Origin: Candidatus Nomurabacteria bacterium
GTDB taxonomy: Bacteria; Patescibacteriota; Minisyncoccia; Phycocordibacterales; UBA918
Assembly (NCBI GenBank): GCA_020632035.1
Contig: JACKGG010000001.1
Location: 152,985 to 216,984, forward strand
Length of the DNA: 64,000 nucleotides
Reading direction: 5' to 3'
Shown here: in pieces, positions 29,062-64,000 of the stretch
Numbering within the stretch: the stretch's first letter is position 1
How the letters are laid out: each line of letters begins with the position of its first letter
Program-made: the position numbers and the translations under genes
Notes under the pieces: generated by a model
What the model was told of the DNA's origin: nothing
The model's input: only the letters and a program-made list of their open reading frames with translations
The model's database searches: none

Positions 29062-29289
29062 TCAACCATTTTCACGGATGATGACCTCACCTTTTTTTCT
29101 GCGTTCCAGCTCCTTTCTTGCCAGATTAAGGCGTTCCGCCTGACCAGAAATCGGGCCGTTTCGATTGAGCTGATCTATGAGCAGATTTAAGGCATAATTT
29201 GGTGCTTTTTCAATAGATGTACCCTCCTCAACACCAAAGACTGTCCCCGTTACAACTGAAATTTTAGGTTTGGTATCAATCATCTTCAT
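29062..29289 (-). CDS. Hypothetical small protein (75 aa)
   Basis: ORF with strong RBS aaggagg 6 nt upstream of ATG; followed by intrinsic terminator at 29006-29034. Confidence 0.35.
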   Translation of the reverse strand: MKMIDTKPKISVVTGTVFGVEEGTSIEKAPNYALNLLIDQLNRNGPISGQAERLNLARKELERRKKGEVIIRENG

Positions 29290-29494
29290 CCTCCTTCCTT
29301 TGAAATGAGGTATTATTTATACCATATTTAATCTTATTTGCCTAGACTTAACTCGTATCTATCAATATCTACTAGATCTCTTCATAGTTCCGAAGGTCGG
29401 TCCTTCGGAAAGCGAGAGGAGGTCCAACTTCATGAGAGAGTTTCTGTCCCGAGGTCTGACCTCGGGACATGAGGTGCATTCTTCAAGAAGTGGT

Positions 29495-30844
29495 TTATTG
29501 GACTTCTTGTGTTCCTGGTTCTTTTAGGGCGGCTTTGGTATAGATATTGGATGGTGCCCAAATCATCCAGCTCATTACTCCAGCGTCGTAACTAGCCTGT
29601 ATCTGAGCTCGAACATCTGCCGCGTCATAGTCACCTCCGTAGTCAAAATCTTGAATCCATGTCCGGAATTTATCAGCTGTGTATACCGGCTTGTTATACA
29701 TTCCGGTTTGCGTGACAGTACCACTAGCATTTGTAACGGTTTCTGGTATATGTAAAAATCCTTTCATTGGCGTGGTACTTGAAATCATCCGGTCTACTCC
29801 AGCTTGCATGGCATAATTCACTACCTTGTAGGGATAATCATTTGGATTACCAAGACCAAGGAAACTGTTTGGATAGTGCGACGGGTAAACCATCGGAGCA
29901 ATAAAATCAAAGTATGGGGCTGCTCTATCTTGCACCTGTCCAATAGAAAGATCATCAAAGTTGGTGGTGGTCATACCAAACAAGTCCGCTGAAGTATATG
30001 GTGTGCTCAATGCTCGGCCGGTATTTTCATGTCGGTATCGAGCAAAAAGAGTTTCGTCATCAAGTTTTTCATTTAGGTATTTAAAGAAAGCCTCGAGATT
30101 TGCCTGTTTGTCTTTTCCGTACTGTGAAGCTTCGGCATGAGTAAATGAAATATTATCCATCGGTCCGTCAGACGGATACCTTACATAGTCAAAGTTCAGT
30201 TCATCAAAGCCAATGTTGTATGAGTCGACGGCTAGTGTCACTAGGTGATCCCAATAGGGCGTTGCTCCCACATCGATAAATGATAGACCCTTATTATCCT
30301 TCCAGACTGTCTCTCTATCGGCTTTTTTAACCGCTAGTTCTGGATGGGCTGCAGTATAGAAAGGGTCCTGAAAAACGGTAATTCTACCTATAACAAATAC
30401 TCCCTTGTCGTGAAGCATGGTCACAAACTCTTTCATATCCCTGGCTCCACAGCGCGAATTTTCCCAAGCTGATTGCCATTCACTGCTTTCTGGTTTAAAC
30501 GAAATAGTGCCGGAAAAATCTTTTATATCAATGATAATTGAGTTAACCTCAGTTTCGTTAACCAACGTAACCAACTTATCACGAAAAGATGGCGTACCGA
30601 CAACACAAGAGGTCATGTAGATCGTCTTTACTTGTTCTGGCAATGGCACGTGTGGCACCACCGGCCGATTATCGACTACTGGTATTTCTTTTACTACTTC
30701 CTCACCTTCTTTCTTTACTGTTTCGGTATTATTTACAACTGAATCAACTGTAGTGGACTTAACATCAAAAAATGGCACCGGTGTCAAACTTAACGCCGCG
30801 AATGCTACGGCGGTAAAAACAAGTGGTGTACCTATTTTGTGCAT
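29495..30844 (-). CDS. Secreted putative glycoside hydrolase-like TIM-barrel protein (GHL/DUF4015-like)
   Basis: Signal peptide/TM MHKIGTPLVFTAVAFAALSL; GHL-family-like VFVIGRITVFQDPFYTAAHPE, FDELNFDYVRYP. Confidence 0.4.
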   Translation of the reverse strand: MHKIGTPLVFTAVAFAALSLTPVPFFDVKSTTVDSVVNNTETVKKEGEEVVKEIPVVDNRPVVPHVPLPEQVKTIYMTSCVVGTPSFRDKLVTLVNETEVNSIIIDIKDFSGTISFKPESSEWQSAWENSRCGARDMKEFVTMLHDKGVFVIGRITVFQDPFYTAAHPELAVKKADRETVWKDNKGLSFIDVGATPYWDHLVTLAVDSYNIGFDELNFDYVRYPSDGPMDNISFTHAEASQYGKDKQANLEAFFKYLNEKLDDETLFARYRHENTGRALSTPYTSADLFGMTTTNFDDLSIGQVQDRAAPYFDFIAPMVYPSHYPNSFLGLGNPNDYPYKVVNYAMQAGVDRMISSTTPMKGFLHIPETVTNASGTVTQTGMYNKPVYTADKFRTWIQDFDYGGDYDAADVRAQIQASYDAGVMSWMIWAPSNIYTKAALKEPGTQEVQ

Positions 30845-30940
30845 AAGTTTATTTTAACCTGTCCGTGCAGTAATAACCAAACATTTTTGCAGCTCGCTAC
30901 AGCCAGATTCAGCATAGTCGTAGCTACGCTAGTCGTTGCT

Positions 30941-31171
30941 TCATTCATCAAAAAGTACTTCCGTGGTTTCGACAAAAGTGTCACTACCCCTTTCTCCATT
31001 GCCTTTATCTAGCCTTCTTAAGTAAGCAGCCCGCCTCAACACATAACCGACTAAGATAAGGACGATACCTATAACCATAATAGAGAACTGTCGCCATTCT
31101 TCCGGCACACCGAGAAAAGGTACGATAGTGAGTAAAATTCCAAATACAAATACAATAGTTTCTTTAGACAT
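30941..31171 (-). CDS. Small two-TM membrane protein
   Basis: 76 aa, two hydrophobic helices, basic loop RRAAYLRRLDK. Confidence 0.35.
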   Translation of the reverse strand: MSKETIVFVFGILLTIVPFLGVPEEWRQFSIMVIGIVLILVGYVLRRAAYLRRLDKGNGERGSDTFVETTEVLFDE

Positions 31172-31230
31172 GAGTTGAGTTTCAGTAGTAATAACTCATT
31201 TTAACCTGTCACGATGATAACGCCAAATTA

Positions 31231-31267
31231 ACAAAAAATTAGAGGTCTACACTAACGCATAGACCTC
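31231..31267 (-). terminator. Rho-independent terminator after hypothetical gene 31318..32343
   Basis: Minus-strand hairpin gaggtcta-cactaacgca-tagacctc followed by T-run (taattttttgtt). Confidence 0.55.
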
Positions 31268-31317
31268 CAGTGCTCCTAAATAACGGATATTCTTATACCA
31301 CCACTTACATTGGATGG

Positions 31318-32343
31318 CTACTCCTTACGCCAACGAACAGGATTACGAGAAATGACAGAAGCTAAATTACGAGCCTTAAGTGCATTCAGTATGACCGAAG
31401 AAAGATCCCTTTGATGGTATTGTTCAGACCAGTAATCGATACTGTCCGAAGCTGCACCAGAATATTCAGCTGGTGCAAACATTCGTACGCTAAATTGCAC
31501 TTCTGGATCACAATTGGATTCACGTGAGAATTCCAAAGTAGTGCGACCATCGTACTTAAGTGCTCCTCTACGCCAGGTAACGTCGGTCTCCTTTTTACCG
31601 TCAATCACTTTCATATACACTGGAATATCATGATATAGACCCACCGGCCAACCCTGCCCACCTGTAACATAATCTTCATGCAAGCAAGCGGCTACATCAG
31701 AAGCAGTGCTGATATACCAATTAACATCAGGTATGTAACCGGCCATTATGGTGAGCTGTTCAGCTATATCATCCCTCCAACAGCTAGTAGTTATAAGACG
31801 CTCTTTCACGAATGGCCTCCAACCGTGAAGACCCTGGTCAGACAGCAATCTTTCCATGGTCTCTGTCGCTTTCCTGTGAACCTCTCCATTACTATCAGAG
31901 GTCCTGAAGGCAACAGCCTGGCCAAACTTCTTCAACCTCAAGCCGACATTGATCAGTGGCAACTGCAAACTGGCCTCTTCCCCATTTTGCAGCGTTTCAT
32001 CCAAACTAATTATTTCTTCCTTGAAATTGAATAGTTTTCCATAATCATTGACCATATTGCCCAGTAGAAATTCCAGCGGGTCTGAAAATTCTTTTTTCCC
32101 TCCTTTACAGTTGCGCACATAATCACTGATAAATCTTACGACAACTTTCCCTATATACCTTGTGTCGAGAGAATCATCGCGGAAGTCAATCCCATGCTCA
32201 TATAGAAAAGGATAAAGATGTCTTACTTCAACTAACTTTGGTTCGTTCATTTCGAAGATCTCCTGAGAGAACAATGAGTGCAGTCGCCTGCAAACCGTCC
32301 GATTGCTCGGCCGGATGAAACGAGGGGATCCCATTTCACCCAA
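31318..32343 (-). CDS. Hypothetical cytoplasmic protein (no recognisable family)
   Basis: 341-aa ORF (alternative ATG at 32250, MNEPKLVEV); followed by intrinsic terminator 31231-31267. Confidence 0.4.
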   Translation of the reverse strand: MGEMGSPRFIRPSNRTVCRRLHSLFSQEIFEMNEPKLVEVRHLYPFLYEHGIDFRDDSLDTRYIGKVVVRFISDYVRNCKGGKKEFSDPLEFLLGNMVNDYGKLFNFKEEIISLDETLQNGEEASLQLPLINVGLRLKKFGQAVAFRTSDSNGEVHRKATETMERLLSDQGLHGWRPFVKERLITTSCWRDDIAEQLTIMAGYIPDVNWYISTASDVAACLHEDYVTGGQGWPVGLYHDIPVYMKVIDGKKETDVTWRRGALKYDGRTTLEFSRESNCDPEVQFSVRMFAPAEYSGAASDSIDYWSEQYHQRDLSSVILNALKARNLASVISRNPVRWRKE

Positions 32344-32414
32344 AAAAAAACTTAATGTAAGCAGTATTTTGGGTGAATACGATTTCCGTATTAAATACTT
32401 TTATTTTTACTAAG

Positions 32415-33095
32415 TCAATGAATTTCAACAATAACGACAAACTCGCCTTTCTGTCTGACTGGCTCCCCTTCCAGCACCTTTAGGACTTCTTGAGGGGTTC
32501 CGATTATCATTTCTTCGAACATTTTTGTTAGCTCGCGACCAAGGTAGATTTGAGCATTTGGATAAATTTCCGCTAAACTGGTGAGAGTTTTTATTATTCG
32601 ATGAGTTGATTCGAAGAAGACTGCTGGCTCAGTCTTGGTCGCGAGAGTTTTGAAAAAAGTCTCACGACCTTTCTTGAGAGGAGCAAAACCAAGAAATGTG
32701 AACTTATTGCCAGCAATTCCAGCTAGTGAGACAGCGGTAGTAACAGCCGATGGGCCTGGAATAGCTTCTATGAGCGCGCCCGCTTTGCGGGCGCGCTGTA
32801 CCAAAATCACCCCAGGATCACTAATCCCCGGAGTACCGGCGTCACTTACTAAAGCAAAATGTTTACCTTCCATGAGCTCAGTAATAATACGCTCGTGATC
32901 ACCTTCACTAGCATGAGCATCGTAGCGACGTAAGGGCTTCTTGACTTCATAGTGAGCAAGCAACTTCCCTGTCACTCGAGTATCTTCACATAACACAACA
33001 TCGCACTCTTTAAGAGTCCGCAGAGCACGCAGGGTAATATCCTCCAGATTTCCGATAGGAGTGGCAACTATAGATAATTTTCCATTTTCAGACAT
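32415..33095 (-). CDS. rsmI: 16S rRNA (cytidine1402-2'-O)-methyltransferase
   Basis: LSIVATPIGNLEDITLRALRTLKECDVVLCEDTR N-terminal signature of RsmI tetrapyrrole-methylase fold. Confidence 0.85.
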   Translation of the reverse strand: MSENGKLSIVATPIGNLEDITLRALRTLKECDVVLCEDTRVTGKLLAHYEVKKPLRRYDAHASEGDHERIITELMEGKHFALVSDAGTPGISDPGVILVQRARKAGALIEAIPGPSAVTTAVSLAGIAGNKFTFLGFAPLKKGRETFFKTLATKTEPAVFFESTHRIIKTLTSLAEIYPNAQIYLGRELTKMFEEMIIGTPQEVLKVLEGEPVRQKGEFVVIVEIH

Positions 33096-33146
33096 AACAG
33101 TAAGCTACCATTATATCGATATTAAAAAAAGCCAGGTCAATCCCTT

Positions 33147-33167
33147 GACCTAGGGTAACCCTAGGTC
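33147..33167. repeat. REP-like palindrome (gacctagggtaaccctaggtc), left flank of Y1 transposase
   Basis: Perfect palindrome; second copy at 33864-33900 and third copy inside murD at 39061-39081. Confidence 0.7.
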
Positions 33168-33849
33168 AGCTTTGGTGACCTTTTAAAATATCGGTATTGT
33201 ATGCTAACCACTCAAACAATTCTTTTTTCATATCTATATGACTAGAAAAATAATCTGGGAATGGAGACGAATCTAAAACGGCTTTTTCTGGTCGATTTAA
33301 TCCTAAATGATCAGGCAAACTTGAATACTGATAAGTCGATACGAATTTATACGCAGTTTCTAAATTCTTTATCCCCCTCTCTACCCAATCTGATTGATAC
33401 AACTTAACAGGATTAAGGTGTATATAGGAATATAAATATTTTAAATATTCATCTTCTCCGGCGTGTTTAGCTTTATAATTTCCTTGGAACAAGGTGCCGG
33501 TACGCTCGTTTCTTTTATTAAAATACATTGAGTAACTTGTACATAATTTATTCATAAAAATACCTAGACCATCATCAGTATGTGGTGTGGCTATAATATG
33601 AAAATGATTAGGCATAAGACAGTATGCGCCGATAGAGACAAGTTGTTCCTTCCTATTAAATTCAAATATATTTTTACCCGACCTAGAAATATTACGATAG
33701 TTTACTGATACTGATGAATTACAAAGATATAAAAGATCAATAAATCTTTTATAATCTGCAGTATCAGTAAAGATAATTCTTCTGTCGGTACCTCTATTAT
33801 AAATATGATAAAACTCGCCAGTTGAAAAACTTATACTCCTGGTTGCCAT
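33166..33849 (-). mobile_element. HUH Y1 tyrosine transposase, IS200/RAYT-like (REP-associated)
   Basis: HuH motif CLMPNHFHIIAT and catalytic Tyr region YSYIHLNP; flanked on both sides by the same palindrome. Confidence 0.6.
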
Positions 33850-33863
33850 TTTTGTATACTAAC

Positions 33864-33900
33864 ACAACCTGACCTAGGGTAACCCTAGGTCAGGTTGTGT
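33864..33900. repeat. REP-like palindrome, right flank of Y1 transposase (extended 18-bp stem)
   Basis: acacaacctgacctagggt-a-accctaggtcaggttgtgt. Confidence 0.7.
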
Positions 33901-33922
33901 TATCTGCCGAAAATTTACAATA

Positions 33923-34870
33923 TTACTTCCAGTTAAATCCCCTACCAAAGTGTCCCCAAGCAGCAGTGTCTTTGTAGATCGGAGCTTCAAGTTGGAGGAA
34001 TGACTTTATGCCATTTGGAGTTAGGTCGTAACCTTCCACATCTTCTGGCACGCCATCGACTATCGCAACCGCCATTAGCGCTTCTGGGTGACCTATGGCG
34101 TAGGCTAGTTTTACCAATACCTTTTGTGCCTCTGGGTATTTTTCTAAGTAATCTACAGCGATTCTTCTCGCCATGTAGGCTGCACTTCTGTCCACCTTAC
34201 TTGGGTCTTTTCCAGAAAAAGCTCCCCCACCAACTGCAATCTCAGGACCGTAGTTATCGATAATTATCTTTCTGCCAGTGAGACCCGCGTCGGCATCGAA
34301 GCCTCCTTGATTCCAGTCTCCAGCTGGATTTACGTGGTACGCTCCAGCGCCAGAAATAATACTTTCTACTAATGGTAGCAATTCCGCAGTCGGTGCGTTT
34401 TGGAAACTACAAACTACTGAGTGAATAGTTCCATCTTCGTCTACCGTCACCTGAGTCTTACCATCGTATGGGTATTTTTCGTACACCGCTTGGCAGAGAC
34501 CTCGAGCTAGTTCGTATTCTTTTGGCATGAAGGTATCGGTTTCTCTGGTAGCATAGCCAGTCATGATTCCTTGGTCACCTGCTCCACCAGTATCTACACC
34601 TTGGGCAATTTCTCTACTCTGCTCAACAATATGAATTGTTACATCCTCTACATCTGGCGCAATTGCTTTTACAATTCCAAGCACATCTACATCTTTAGCG
34701 AGAGTGGTGACTTCACCAGTGACAAGTATCTTACCGTGCGAACCAACAGTCTCCACTGCTACTCGACTCTTTGGGTCTTGTTCTAAGTAGGCATCTAATA
34801 CGGCGTCGGATATTCGATCACACATTTTGTCTGGGTGTCCTGGTGATACACATTCGGCTGTCTTTAACAT
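33923..34870 (-). CDS. metK: S-adenosylmethionine synthetase (short form)
   Basis: SPGHPDKMCDRISDAVLDAYLEQDPKSRVAVET, GAGDQGIMTGYA, DxSxVDRSAAY motifs; ATG at 34868-34870 preferred over upstream TTG. Confidence 0.8.
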   Translation of the reverse strand: MLKTAECVSPGHPDKMCDRISDAVLDAYLEQDPKSRVAVETVGSHGKILVTGEVTTLAKDVDVLGIVKAIAPDVEDVTIHIVEQSREIAQGVDTGGAGDQGIMTGYATRETDTFMPKEYELARGLCQAVYEKYPYDGKTQVTVDEDGTIHSVVCSFQNAPTAELLPLVESIISGAGAYHVNPAGDWNQGGFDADAGLTGRKIIIDNYGPEIAVGGGAFSGKDPSKVDRSAAYMARRIAVDYLEKYPEAQKVLVKLAYAIGHPEALMAVAIVDGVPEDVEGYDLTPNGIKSFLQLEAPIYKDTAAWGHFGRGFNWK

Positions 34871-34892
34871 TGTTTTATTTCTTAATTTTATA

Positions 34893-34920
34893 AAACACAA
34901 AATGCGTCATAACATGACGC
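34893..34920 (-). promoter_or_regulatory. Terminator-like hairpin + U-run inside the metK 5' leader (possible attenuator/riboswitch expression platform)
   Basis: Minus strand gcgtcat-gtt-atgacgc followed by ttttgtgtttt, 30 nt upstream of metK ATG; additional perfect 17-bp hairpin at 35013-35056. Confidence 0.4.
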
Positions 34921-35370
34921 ACCAGAGGAGTTACGCATCTACCTCACTTTCGTGAGTTGAAGGTCGCACCGTTTTCTCAAAAAATCTGAAAAATGGTTGC
35001 GGACGGAGTTTCGGTCAGCCGGAGAGTTTCTCTTGAGAAAAACTCTCCGGCTGACCATCGGGTCAATTCCCTATTCCGTTCTCTGGATACTGGTATTTAA
35101 TTGTGTACGTACATTATAACTCAAATTTTATAAAAAAGTTACAAAATGATACTTAATTACTGCATGAATTATGTGCCATAATTCATTGACTATAAGGAGG
35201 TTTCGTGTTATTGTTGTTCCGAAAACAGTTCTGAACCTAATGTTCTGTACATCTAAAACTAACTACATACTACACCTGGAGGTGTTACATGTTTGAATGG
35301 TTGATATTGATAGTGCCAGCAGATACTATCTGGCTGGCAATTCATCACCGGAGCAATTATTTCAACTGGA

Positions 35371-38472: not shown

Positions 38473-39824
38473 TCTTTGATATCAATTTCATTTATACATC
38501 TAACAAACTCGTCGTTTCTCTCATATTCATTTTTGAACATTCCAAATGAGGCGAAACCTGGGCTAAAGAGGAGGACGTCTCCGGGTTGGCCGGAGGCCAA
38601 CCCGGCCGAAACAGCATCAGACAAACTCCCCACCACCTCAGACTCAACCATTTCTTTTAGAACATCTGTACCCGTGCCCTTTAATAAAACAATCTTCTTA
38701 CAGAACTTCTTTGTCTCTTCGGCCAAAGGAGATGGGTCAATATTTTTGTATGCGCCACCGGCAATTAGAATTACATTCTTATCATTAATATTTCCCACAG
38801 CTTGCAAACCTTTTACCGTTGCTTCAGGAATTGTAGAATTATTATCATTATAAATCTTTACCCCATTTTTTTCTCCTAGGTATTCGAGCCGACCAGGTAC
38901 GCCTGGAAAACTAGCCAATCCAGCGAAAATAGACTCTTCATCTAAACTAACTGCCTTCAAGGCTTCGCAAGCAATGGCGGCGTTTAGTCGATTATGTGCT
39001 CCAGGCATGGCCAATAGCGCGTCTTCGGGGATAACTGACTCATCTACCAACTTGACCTCTTGACCTAGGGTTACCCTAGGCAATTGTTTAGCTAGTTCAA
39101 AAACTTCTGGAGTGGTGACGAGGACTCCGCTTTCTTCTTGGTATTCAAATATATTGGCTTTGTCGGCAAAATATAATTTCAAAGCTTCTTCTTTAGTTCT
39201 ACCTCCAGCTTGATAGTAGTTGAGGTGATCTTCCATAAAGTTGGTAAATACAGCAACTTGTGGACTCATCTTTGACCATCCCCAGCCTTGTAACTGCCAA
39301 GAGTCTAACTCCATAACACAGAGTGAATCTTCATTTACTTCATCTAAAAGTTGTAGATTGGAAACACCACGGACATTCCCGCCGAGAAGGACTTTTTCAC
39401 CAGTTACTTCAGTCAAAACATGATGAATCATGTGTGTGACAGTAGACTTCCCCCTAGTACCAGTCACTCCAATAATCGGTACTTTAGAAATTTCGGCAAA
39501 CCAAGCTGCCGATTGTTTGAGTGGCACGCCCGCTTTGCGGGCGTGCTCAAAGACTTCCAAATCCATCGGAGCTCCAGCACCCACCAAGACAAAGTCACAT
39601 TCAGTGAAGTGTTCCTTTTGATATGGACCAAAAGAAAATCTGACATTTGGATAGTCTGCCAATGCATCGACGGATGGTTGCATTACTTCTTCTGAGGCAT
39701 CATCAACCACGTGTACTTCAGCTCCTGCATCAGCTAAAAATTTTGCGTCGCCGACACCTCTACCAAGTAGGCCAATTCTCATTACAGTTATTTTCTTTCC
39801 GTAAAAATATTCTTTAAAATTCAT
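38469..39824 (-). CDS. murD: UDP-N-acetylmuramoylalanine--D-glutamate ligase
   Basis: N-terminal MRIGLLGRGVGDAKFLADAGAEV, IIGVTGTRGKSTVTHMIHHVL P-loop, MPGAHNRLNAAIACEALKA; contains in-frame REP copy (39061-39081) and GC palindrome (39534-39556). Confidence 0.75.
   Translation of the reverse strand: MNFKEYFYGKKITVMRIGLLGRGVGDAKFLADAGAEVHVVDDASEEVMQPSVDALADYPNVRFSFGPYQKEHFTECDFVLVGAGAPMDLEVFEHARKAGVPLKQSAAWFAEISKVPIIGVTGTRGKSTVTHMIHHVLTEVTGEKVLLGGNVRGVSNLQLLDEVNEDSLCVMELDSWQLQGWGWSKMSPQVAVFTNFMEDHLNYYQAGGRTKEEALKLYFADKANIFEYQEESGVLVTTPEVFELAKQLPRVTLGQEVKLVDESVIPEDALLAMPGAHNRLNAAIACEALKAVSLDEESIFAGLASFPGVPGRLEYLGEKNGVKIYNDNNSTIPEATVKGLQAVGNINDKNVILIAGGAYKNIDPSPLAEETKKFCKKIVLLKGTGTDVLKEMVESEVVGSLSDAVSAGLASGQPGDVLLFSPGFASFGMFKNEYERNDEFVRCINEIDIKE
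39061..39081. repeat. REP-like palindrome copy (tgacctagggttaccctaggca) inserted in-frame inside murD
   Basis: Same cctagggt-N-accctagg palindrome as flanks of transposase at 33166-33849; encodes LPRVTLGQE in murD reading frame. Confidence 0.65.
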
Positions 39825-42856: not shown

Positions 42857-43087
42857 TTAAAACTCTACTTCTGTTCGTAAGGGTTTATTCATAATCATAA
42901 CTCACAGCAGACTTGGAGTGTCACGTACTCTTTTGTCTTATCCTTTAGGCTTGGTCTTTCCCAAGAGTCTAATACCATTTCAGAGAATTGAGTATCATTT
43001 CTCGTTATGTGCTCAATTGAGGCACATAACACCGACCAATTAGTTATCATTGTGCTTTGTTACCAAAACACGACAACGTATCCAATT

Positions 43088-44545
<1,458 letters not shown>

Positions 44546-63121: not shown

Positions 63122-63233
63122 AAGTTGGCGCCTACCTACTCTTCCCCTTGCGGAGTACCATCGGTGGTAGAAGACTTTACTGCCGTGTTCGGAATGAGAA
63201 CGGGTGTACCCCTTCCCCCAAAGCACCAACTTG
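63122..63233 (-). rRNA. rrf: 5S ribosomal RNA
   Basis: Minus strand AAGTTGGTGC...CACCCGTTCTCATTCCGAACACGGCAG...GATGGTACTCC...GAGTAGGTAGGCGCCAACTT; helix I pairing of ends; matches bacterial 5S consensus (CCGAACACGG, GATGGTA). Confidence 0.8.

Positions 63234-63789: not shown

Positions 63790-64000
<211 letters not shown>

Follow-up and report, generated by a model that had tools for sequence, protein, structure and literature searches.

We analyzed a 64,000-nucleotide (nt) stretch of a Candidatus Nomurabacteria genome (assembly GCA_020632035.1, contig JACKGG010000001.1, positions 152,985 to 216,984), referred to below as the window, in which a gene for a Y1/HUH single-strand DNA endonuclease or transposase lies between two copies of one palindrome. 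The gene and its palindromes, together called the cassette, sit between rsmI, which scores above the TIGR00096 cut-off, and metK, which has all three AdoMet-synthetase Pfam domains and scores below the TIGR01034 cut-off; the position given in a preliminary description of the locus is therefore correct. That description took the locus for a system of a tyrosine transposase that goes with repetitive extragenic palindromes (REPs), known as a RAYT, and its REP sequences. The parts of the cassette, in window positions, are the following.

33146 to 33902, minus strand: whole cassette (hairpin, promoter, Y1 gene, hairpin), 757 bp, delimited by empty sister sites, the junction and GC content
33860 to 33902, no strand: upstream (5') terminal palindrome, TAACACAACCTGACCTAGGGT-A-ACCCTAGGTCAGGTTGTGTTA, 21-nt perfect arms
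33856 to 33861, minus strand: -10-like hexamer TAGTAT, read from the sequence, ending exactly 6 nt before the ATG
33166 to 33849, minus strand: Y1/HUH gene, 227 amino acids (aa), from Pfam Y1_Tnp, motifs and fold
33676 to 33686, minus strand: internal half-site, CTAGGTCGGGT on the gene strand, codons 55-58 (repeats D4, I12)
33598 to 33606, minus strand: HUH motif H82-F83-H84, read in ORF 33166-33849
33424 to 33426, minus strand: codon of the catalytic Y142, read in the same ORF
33146 to 33168, no strand: downstream (3') terminal palindrome, TGACCTAGGGT-A-ACCCTAGGTCA, 11-nt arms
33123 to 33153, minus strand: terminator-like hairpin CTAGGTCAAGGGATTGACCTGG followed by CTTTTTTT, from a terminator scan and comparison with the terminators of two sister loci, L108 and L111

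The open reading frame (ORF) carries the catalytic motifs PNHFHI (H82 and H84) and YIHLNP (Y142), as the preliminary description had read them, and a C-terminal tail with a YSSL motif. Its identification as a Y1 transposase was confirmed by Pfam PF01797 (Y1_Tnp; 38.4 bits against a gathering score of 23, E value of 1.6e-9), and the catalytic HUH and Tyr residues are invariant among 37 homologues. The proposed check against RAYT profiles gave a different answer: NCBIfam NF047646 (REP_Tyr_transpos, the REP-associated tyrosine transposase equivalog) scored 46.1 bits, below its curated cut-off of 80, in a partial match limited to residues 62-149. Because a sequence search of the PDB returned no match, we turned to the fold. 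An AlphaFold2 model built from the 37 homologues is confident (pLDDT of 86.8), and its top PDB match by Foldseek is 4ER8, the E. coli TnpA_REP with a REP hairpin (E value of 5.5e-6, target TM-score of 0.65), followed by 2A6O, 2VIC, 2F4F and 2XM3, which are TnpA structures of IS608, IS200 and ISDra2. The tail is helical in the model, and a Pfam search of residues 153-227 for a helix-turn-helix (HTH)-like domain found no match at an E value of 1 or below.

In the parts of Quentin et al. (2018; PMC6006769) drawn on here, class 1 enzymes have the tyrosine motif Y---Q and class 2 enzymes Y---NP, which places YIHLNP in class 2. Subclass 2.1 is described there by the motifs NH[YF]H, FQ, Y[IV]HLNP and an SS tail motif, by a median length of 238 aa and by a C-terminal HTH-like domain (Bac_DnaA_C, HTH_23 or HTH_28; heterogeneous in group 2.1.2). 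The protein has NHFH, LFQG, YIHLNP and YSSL at 227 aa against about 238, an assignment made by inspecting motifs against Table 1 of that paper and not with the authors' HMMs. As far as the portions of these papers used here go, subclass 2.1 equals the TIRtron/TIRYT genes of Di Nocera et al. (2013; PMC3733652) and RAYT group 1 of Bertels et al. (2017; PMC5581495). ORF 33166-33849 is thus an intact Y1/HUH enzyme of the RAYT clade (class 2, Y...NP), its class-2 motif and closest structure supporting the preliminary description on this point, and to judge from its motifs it resembles the enzymes of Quentin subclass 2.1, Bertels group 1 and the TIRYTs. With one representative taken per 50%-identity cluster, the protein family comprises 300 clusters at an E value of 1e-30 or below and 5144 at 1e-10 or below; named members come from Nomurabacteria, Kaiserbacteria, Paceibacteria and other Parcubacteria. 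The exact protein (100% identical) is present in five assemblies, each time in the metK-rsmI interval. Viral contigs contained relatives of neither the protein nor the palindrome, a PHROGs search gave no match, and phage and plasmid records contained distant Y1 relatives only (25-39% identity), so none of these collections offered a carrier for the cassette.

The two palindromes do bracket the gene, as the preliminary description stated, although the upstream one, at 33860-33902 with its 21-nt arms, is larger than it allowed. This palindrome ends 10 nt from the ATG, carries the apex AGG-N5-CCT that typifies the family described below and, as single-stranded DNA, is predicted to form a 20-bp stem (-22.9 kcal/mol, z = -10.1). 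Its downstream counterpart contains the TGA stop codon (33166-33168). The 23-nt palindrome of the cassette is TGACCTAGGGTNACCCTAGGTCA, and its core, CCTAGGGTNACCCTAGG, occurs three times in the window, where 0.08 copies are expected even when 3 mismatches are allowed. At the palindromes, an Rfam search gave no credible family, its sole matches being microRNA-like hairpins that scored below threshold.

Comparison with sister genomes established how the cassette came to lie where it does. In L108/L109 and L111/L112, metK is followed directly by rsmI; MetK is 90% (L108, L109) or 84% (L111, L112) identical to that of the window, gene order is otherwise equal, and synteny is kept over more than 10 kb. 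The spacer between the two genes measures 76-83 nt in the sisters and includes a classical terminator hairpin, whose first arm (TTCGGCAGA) is kept in the window, with the long palindrome beginning right behind it. When the flanks of the window are joined across 33903 and 33145, the resulting sequence, TTCGGCAGA followed by AGGGA, agrees with TTCGGCAGAAGCGA of L108 in 13 of 14 positions. The cassette junctions lack a target-site duplication, and the cassette has a GC content of 32-33% against 42-50% in the flanks. Since metK adjoins rsmI in sister genomes that lack the unit, these data show that the palindrome-gene-palindrome unit at 33146-33902 is an insertion into the metK terminator hairpin. 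The empty sister site also argues for an inserted cassette and against a vertically inherited, domesticated RAYT: the gene is single-copy in our data, yet it has empty sister sites, a foreign GC content and relatives in unrelated contexts. The terminator-like hairpin proper spans 33132-33153 and is followed by a T-run; its 5' arm doubles as the outer arm of the downstream palindrome, and its 3' arm with the T-run probably represents the remodelled, orphaned 3' half of the old metK terminator.

We next asked what the hairpins look like across the family, using 80 loci from one metagenome scan (homologues 44-58% identical), of which about 77 served for anatomy; the survey of the apex selected on the six-base motif AGG-N5-CCT only. 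Of 77 loci, 76 have this motif no farther than 100 nt upstream of the ATG, with a median gap of 30 nt, and 72 have it around the stop codon, where its centre has a median of +3 nt; a 5-nt loop is present in 128 of 133 hairpins. Watson-Crick pairs occupy the four positions flanking the apex in 84-89% of loci, compared to 12-36% with a slid partner, and each of these positions shows all four pair types. The covariation score of the stems is 0.559, compared to 0.155 in shuffles (none of 500 reached it) and no more than 0.163 in slid controls. In 44 of 47 loci, the gene has an upstream and a downstream hairpin that are cognate with each other, and hairpin divergence follows protein divergence (Mantel r = 0.25, reached by 0 of 2000 permutations). 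This covariation shows, at the level of comparative sequence analysis, that the two palindromes are cognate sites of the Y1 enzyme rather than chance or plain terminators, and it disposes of the terminator pair that the preliminary description had named as its alternative. Family-wide, hairpins are about 100-fold concentrated at the gene, with the following densities.

200 nt upstream: 3.4 per kb
200 nt downstream: 2.6 per kb
Inside the gene: 0.29 per kb
Within 1 kb: 0.15 per kb
Beyond 1 kb: 0.026 per kb
Shuffled sequence: 0 per kb

The hairpins also mark where similarity between units ends. L096 and L099 share a unit that is 95% identical between partly homologous flanks of about 65% identity; the high identity starts at the 5' foot of the upstream hairpin and falls at the 3' foot of the downstream hairpin. 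Likewise, the similarity between L038 and L046 (83%) and between L060 and L102 (78%) is limited by the hairpin feet, and their flanks are unrelated. The closest relatives, L113 and L114 (65% and 68% identity), have CCTAGGGTTACCCT-type hairpins, in one of them as inverted doublets, in other genomic contexts. Among the 80 relatives, between 17 and about 25 (the count varies with the stem threshold) carry a third cognate hairpin in frame inside the ORF. Its centre falls +163 to +184 nt from the ATG; the hairpin is read as Q/K-G-x-x-L and takes either orientation relative to the upstream copy; the half-site of the window gene occupies the same position. Together, these results show that the cassette belongs to a large family of Parcubacteria and other candidate phyla in which nearly all members are built as hairpin-gene-hairpin. 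A few loci depart from the single-gene layout. L031, L032 and L084 have two divergent Y1 paralogues (39-57% identity to the query) on one strand, 0.8-5 kb apart, and L032 also has five copies of one hairpin arrayed upstream and a different-stem hairpin at the end of the second paralogue. In L096 (6650-6900) and L099 (1350-1495), a second block of ~140 nt, 96-98% identical, follows ~60 divergent nt past the Y1 unit; this block contains TATAAT, a 6-nt gap, an ATG and the beginning of a signal-peptide-like sequence, beyond which each locus continues with a different gene.

Of 75 family loci, 32 have a TATAAT-like hexamer whose end lies exactly 6 nt ahead of the ATG and 46 have one ending 4-10 nt ahead of it, whereas a Shine-Dalgarno-like motif occurs in just 2, a combination that points to leaderless transcripts. 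The window reads TAGTAT-ACAAAA-ATG, which suggests, by analogy with the family, a leaderless promoter in which the palindrome would span the -35 region and the spacer. Because the hairpin covers these elements, binding of the enzyme or extrusion of the hairpin would, by analogy, throttle expression of the gene itself.

To determine whether a REP population accompanies the gene, we looked for copies of the core elsewhere. No extragenic copy beyond the two flanks is present within the 64-kb window. A scan of 185,579 species genomes (the source genome not among them) with the 17-nt core returned 22 single matches in unrelated genomes, mostly terminator-like. The canonical REP tag GT[AG]G stands near the foot in 3 of 139 hairpins of the family and in neither of the window. 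The RAYT/REP system of the preliminary description is thus not supported, given the lack of extragenic copies in 64 kb, the lack of GT[AG]G and the empty sister site. That description would have accepted absence of the palindrome elsewhere as grounds for withdrawing the claim, and this is nearly the case, the only other copy in the 64 kb lying inside murD.

This third copy of the core (39058 to 39081, minus strand, inside murD) encodes LPRVTLGQ. It is in frame and shows no indel or length change compared to orthologues. Five further murD orthologues (62-80% identity) all encode LPRVTLGQ and have a palindrome at the equal site: the 17 nt are identical in L115 and L021, the centre base is flipped in L117, there is one mismatch in L118, and L116 has CCAAGGGTAACCCTTGG, in which T-A has changed to A-T in a compensatory manner at two synonymous sites. 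The consensus, CC[T/A]AGGGT[A/T]ACCCT[A/T]GG, encodes PRVTLG. Synonymous sites next to the palindrome vary freely among orthologues, and the arginine at this site is found only together with the proline, in 6 of 91 sequences. Being in frame, free of indels and maintained by compensatory synonymous changes, the murD copy is not a dispersed extragenic repeat. On reading the sequences, it agrees with the downstream end of the cassette at 24 of 26 nt (CCTAGGGTwACCCTAGGTCAAGrG), which is far beyond chance. An in-frame insertion or a conversion patch from the cassette was considered and rejected, as there is no indel and distant orthologues share the compensated palindrome. The murD copy, then, is a long-standing palindrome within the gene that either selection or hairpin-templated correction has preserved, and it was not shed by the cassette.

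At 29388-29410 and 29445-29469, just past a DUF4015 gene, lie two orphan hairpins that belong to the AGG-N5-CCT class but have stems unlike those of the cassette (TTCCGAAGGTCGGTCCTTCGGAA and TGTCCCGAGGTCTGACCTCGGGACA). The spacer there has 545 nt, compared to only about 60 nt in L002 and L111, and the extra DNA includes a 75-aa ORF (29062-29289, minus strand) with no Pfam match. In addition, the Paceibacteria contig L022 opens (positions 1-380) with a tandem array, upstream of a rhodanese-like gene, of about seven AGG-N5-CCT hairpins that differ from one another. This array resembles a cluster of the bacterial interspersed mosaic element (BIME) type, and no Y1 gene is present in the 7 kb examined.

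The surroundings of the cassette are themselves variable. A block at about 29523-35106 (~5.5 kb, from DUF4015 to the metK leader, with the cassette and an orphan gene for a 310-aa protein) is 99% identical in three assemblies, while the adjoining DNA is 75-78% identical (loci named: the window, L001, L002 and L108). L001 is L108-like to the left of the metK leader (about 99.8%, back-calculated from blastn averages) and window-like to the right (99.4%). The block reflects either recent recombination between related species or a chimeric assembly of metagenome-derived genomes. We tried and rejected the idea that the block shared with L001 and L002 is bounded by hairpins: its edges are a contig end, the conserved metK leader and the DUF4015 stop codon. 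The orphan gene, an ORF of 310-341 aa at 31318-32343 (minus strand) between rsmI and a 76-aa gene, has no Pfam or PHROGs match and is absent from L108 and L111; L110 has a different, 435-aa ORF at its position, making this a second strain-variable slot beside the cassette. The metK leader (34932-35093, minus strand) looks like a divergent S-adenosylmethionine riboswitch of the SAM-I (S-box) type with a long inserted hairpin, and the Rfam SAM model matches it over its full length (1-108) at 24.4 bits, compared to a gathering score of 44.4. Farther away, about 18.6 kb separate the 16S rRNA gene (43085-44544) from the 5S gene and the 3' end of the 23S gene (63123-63230 and 63800-64000; all on the minus strand), so that the rRNA genes are split and do not form one operon.

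We consider it likely that the locus is a low-copy, IS200-like cassette, an inserted mobile unit with a RAYT-clade (TIRYT-like) Y1 enzyme and cognate hairpins as its ends. By analogy with the TnpA proteins of IS608 and ISDra2 and with TnpA_REP, a dimeric enzyme would bind both hairpins folded on single-stranded DNA, for example on the lagging-strand template, and would cleave near the hairpin feet by means of Tyr142 and a metal bound by the HUH motif, whereupon the ends would be rejoined. Through this cleavage and rejoining the cassette would leave as a single-stranded circle and would re-enter single-stranded DNA without target duplication; the junction of the circle would read ACCCTAGGTCA joined to TAACACAACCTGACC, and the emptied site TTCGGCAGA joined to AGGGATTGACC. 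Since hairpins are rare away from the gene, the unit behaves as a one-gene IS200-style element or 'TIRtron' and not as a population of REPs or of REP doublets (REPINs). Several observations weigh against the reading as a mobile cassette. The right-hand junction rests on an alignment of genomes that are only about 78% identical, and a scan of alternative junction offsets singled out no junction; only the global alignment did. A second gene copy, an excision product or a recent transposition event was not seen, and the Y1 protein has one genomic context in all 7 contigs carrying it, so current mobility is unproven. Several near-identical copies per genome were not found either: the window has one copy, and the 3 of 80 relatives with tandem Y1 genes carry divergent paralogues, not identical copies. 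The hairpin pair is direct in 23 loci and inverted in 21, a mixture not expected under the simple IS200/IS605 model, which places both ends on one strand, and a motif search of the family hairpins revealed no conserved guide or target motif at their feet. The -10 hexamer of the window fits 4 of 6 positions, and a generic promoter scan made no call there. Finally, palindromes that are perfect and have a single-base centre would fit a dimeric protein's double-stranded operator as well.

This last point leads to another explanation, in which the gene is now immobile and retained by the host, and the palindromes are expression signals (operator or promoter upstream, mRNA end or terminator downstream) and not recombination sites. 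It would account for a single-copy gene whose protein is 100% identical in five assemblies at one place, for the overlap of the upstream hairpin with the promoter region, for the arm that the downstream palindrome shares with the terminator-like hairpin, and for operator-like perfect dyads with conserved half-sites CAAGG/CCTTG one helical turn apart. We regard it as unlikely, given that the presence of the unit differs among related genomes, that it occurs in unrelated contexts with similarity ending at the hairpin feet, and that the L096/L099 unit is 95% identical against about 65% in the flanks; moreover, arms of up to 21 nt and inverted doublets exceed the needs of an operator, further copies of the hairpin stand at the stop codon and, in many of the relatives, within the ORF, and all catalytic residues are conserved. 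A genuine RAYT/REP(IN) system, in which a domesticated single-copy enzyme maintains dispersed extragenic palindromes, the flanking pair included, is improbable as well. The arrangement is REPtron-like, with TnpA_REP and its REP hairpin as the closest structure; REPIN-like inverted doublets flank the gene in L039, L042, L066, L083, L088 and L114, a few cognate copies lie 0.5-5 kb from it in L041, L081, L088 and L098, and both the same-class orphan hairpins at 29388-29469 and the array opening L022 could be counted as dispersed members. Nevertheless, the 64 kb contain three core copies, the third being the old coding palindrome of murD; the density beyond 1 kb (0.026 per kb) is about 100-fold below that at the gene; GT[AG]G is found at 3 of 139 hairpin feet; the NCBIfam RAYT equivalog stays below its cut-off; the empty sister site and foreign GC argue against vertical domestication; and the published surveys, in the parts of PMC6006769 cited, are without REP-like sequences for subclass 2.1.

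It is conceivable, though we find it rather doubtful, that the hairpins are more than transposon ends, namely single-strand recombination sites at which the Y1 enzyme integrates or replaces cassettes, loosely like integron attC sites; a chromosomal hairpin of the cell-wall gene cluster may then also serve as a substrate of the enzyme or have provided its site. Such an exchange comes to mind because the unit of L096 and L099 is 95% identical between flanks of ~65%, because orphan hairpins of the same class (29388-29469) adjoin another strain-specific insertion, and because the cassette ends match (24 of 26 nt) a compensated palindrome in the essential murD. It is very improbable that the palindromes have nothing to do with the ORF and are common intrinsic terminators or paired by chance. 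In unrelated genomes, most exact copies of the 17-nt core are terminator-like hairpins flanked by A and T runs, and the sisters have a terminator in the metK-rsmI spacer; however, identical stretches of 23-24 nt stand on both sides of the gene, no T-run directly follows either palindrome (the only one follows the second, overlapping hairpin), the downstream flanks of the family hairpins are not T-rich, and the density, pairing and covariation results, together with the positional rule, refute it.

The mobile cassette that we favour combines traits of several known systems. With the TIRYTs it shares the protein signatures NHFH, LFQ, YIHLNP and YSSL and a similar length (227 aa, compared to a median of 238), a low-copy gene with a private repeat pair at fixed distances (self-complementary in some TIRYTs), few or no dispersed copies and suspected horizontal transfer. 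It differs in its perfect hairpins with an invariant AGG-N5-CCT apex, whereas the majority TIRYT type has GGGGWSAS inverted repeats, and its protein has no HTH-like C-terminal Pfam domain. According to the sections of PMC6006769 that treat subclass 2.1, no adjoining REP-like sequences were found for these genes and such structures are reported absent; the in-frame internal hairpin of the relatives and the leaderless-promoter layout are not described in those sections. Candidate-phyla Parcubacteria as hosts were not found in the portions of the TIRYT and RAYT surveys used here, and the terms 'Parcubacteria' and 'Candidatus' are absent from the text of PMC6006769. With the REPtron of E. coli (TnpA_REP with REP/BIME; 4ER8; PMC3479197, PMC3333891, PMC8266576) the cassette shares the closest solved structure, a class-2 Y...NP enzyme, a gene bracketed by cognate hairpins, and co-evolution of hairpin and enzyme; groups of perfectly palindromic REPs are known (PMC8266576). 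In contrast to the REPtron, it lacks the GT[AG]G guide tetranucleotide, neither the 64 kb nor the family loci showed an extragenic population of high copy number, the NCBIfam equivalog is below its cut-off, and the unit is a foreign-GC insertion and probably not a vertically inherited, domesticated gene.

Compared to IS200 (tnpA-only IS200/IS605, with IS608 and ISDra2 as mechanistic models), the cassette is alike in size (757 bp versus about 700 bp), in having one Y1 gene between hairpin-forming ends, in the lack of a target-site duplication, in an upstream hairpin near expression signals and in a unit that would move as a whole. Its enzyme, on the other hand, is of class 2 (Y...NP, 227 aa, with a tail) while that of IS200 is of class 1.1 (Y...Q, about 150 aa), its end hairpins are perfect and identical to each other, the ends within the family are direct or inverted equally often, and no multicopy state was seen. 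An in-frame cognate hairpin inside the ORF, as in many relatives of the cassette, is a feature of the subclass 2.4 tnpA_REP genes of Quentin et al. (2018); in the part of PMC6006769 concerned it is reported for this subclass only and at another position, between the HUH and Tyr motifs, whereas in the relatives, members of another subclass, it precedes HUH (codons about 52-60) and the window gene keeps a half-site only. Measured against these sources, as far as their cited parts extend, the distinctive traits are a conserved-apex hairpin pair on a subclass said to be hairpin-free, the internal in-frame copy, the leaderless layout and the host clade, and the family of hairpin-bounded Y1 cassettes is large and undescribed.

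For the annotation of the window the outcome is modest: one low-copy insertion element between metK and rsmI, and not a REP system. RAYT-type enzymes are regarded as having arisen by domestication of IS200-like elements, but intermediates are scarce. Subclass 2.1 is the largest RAYT-like subclass and is, in the published descriptions drawn on above, reported as hairpin-free, yet in the candidate-phyla clade of the window gene and its about 77 related loci (about 300 clusters at 50% identity, E value of 1e-30 or below) a subclass-2.1-like enzyme still comes as a hairpin-gene-hairpin cassette with precise ends. An AGG-N5-CCT apex on a freely varying stem provides a clean substrate for studies of hairpin choice and cleavage site in class-2 Y1 enzymes, and this recognition element can also mark gene flow in genomes that are generally considered to contain few mobile elements.

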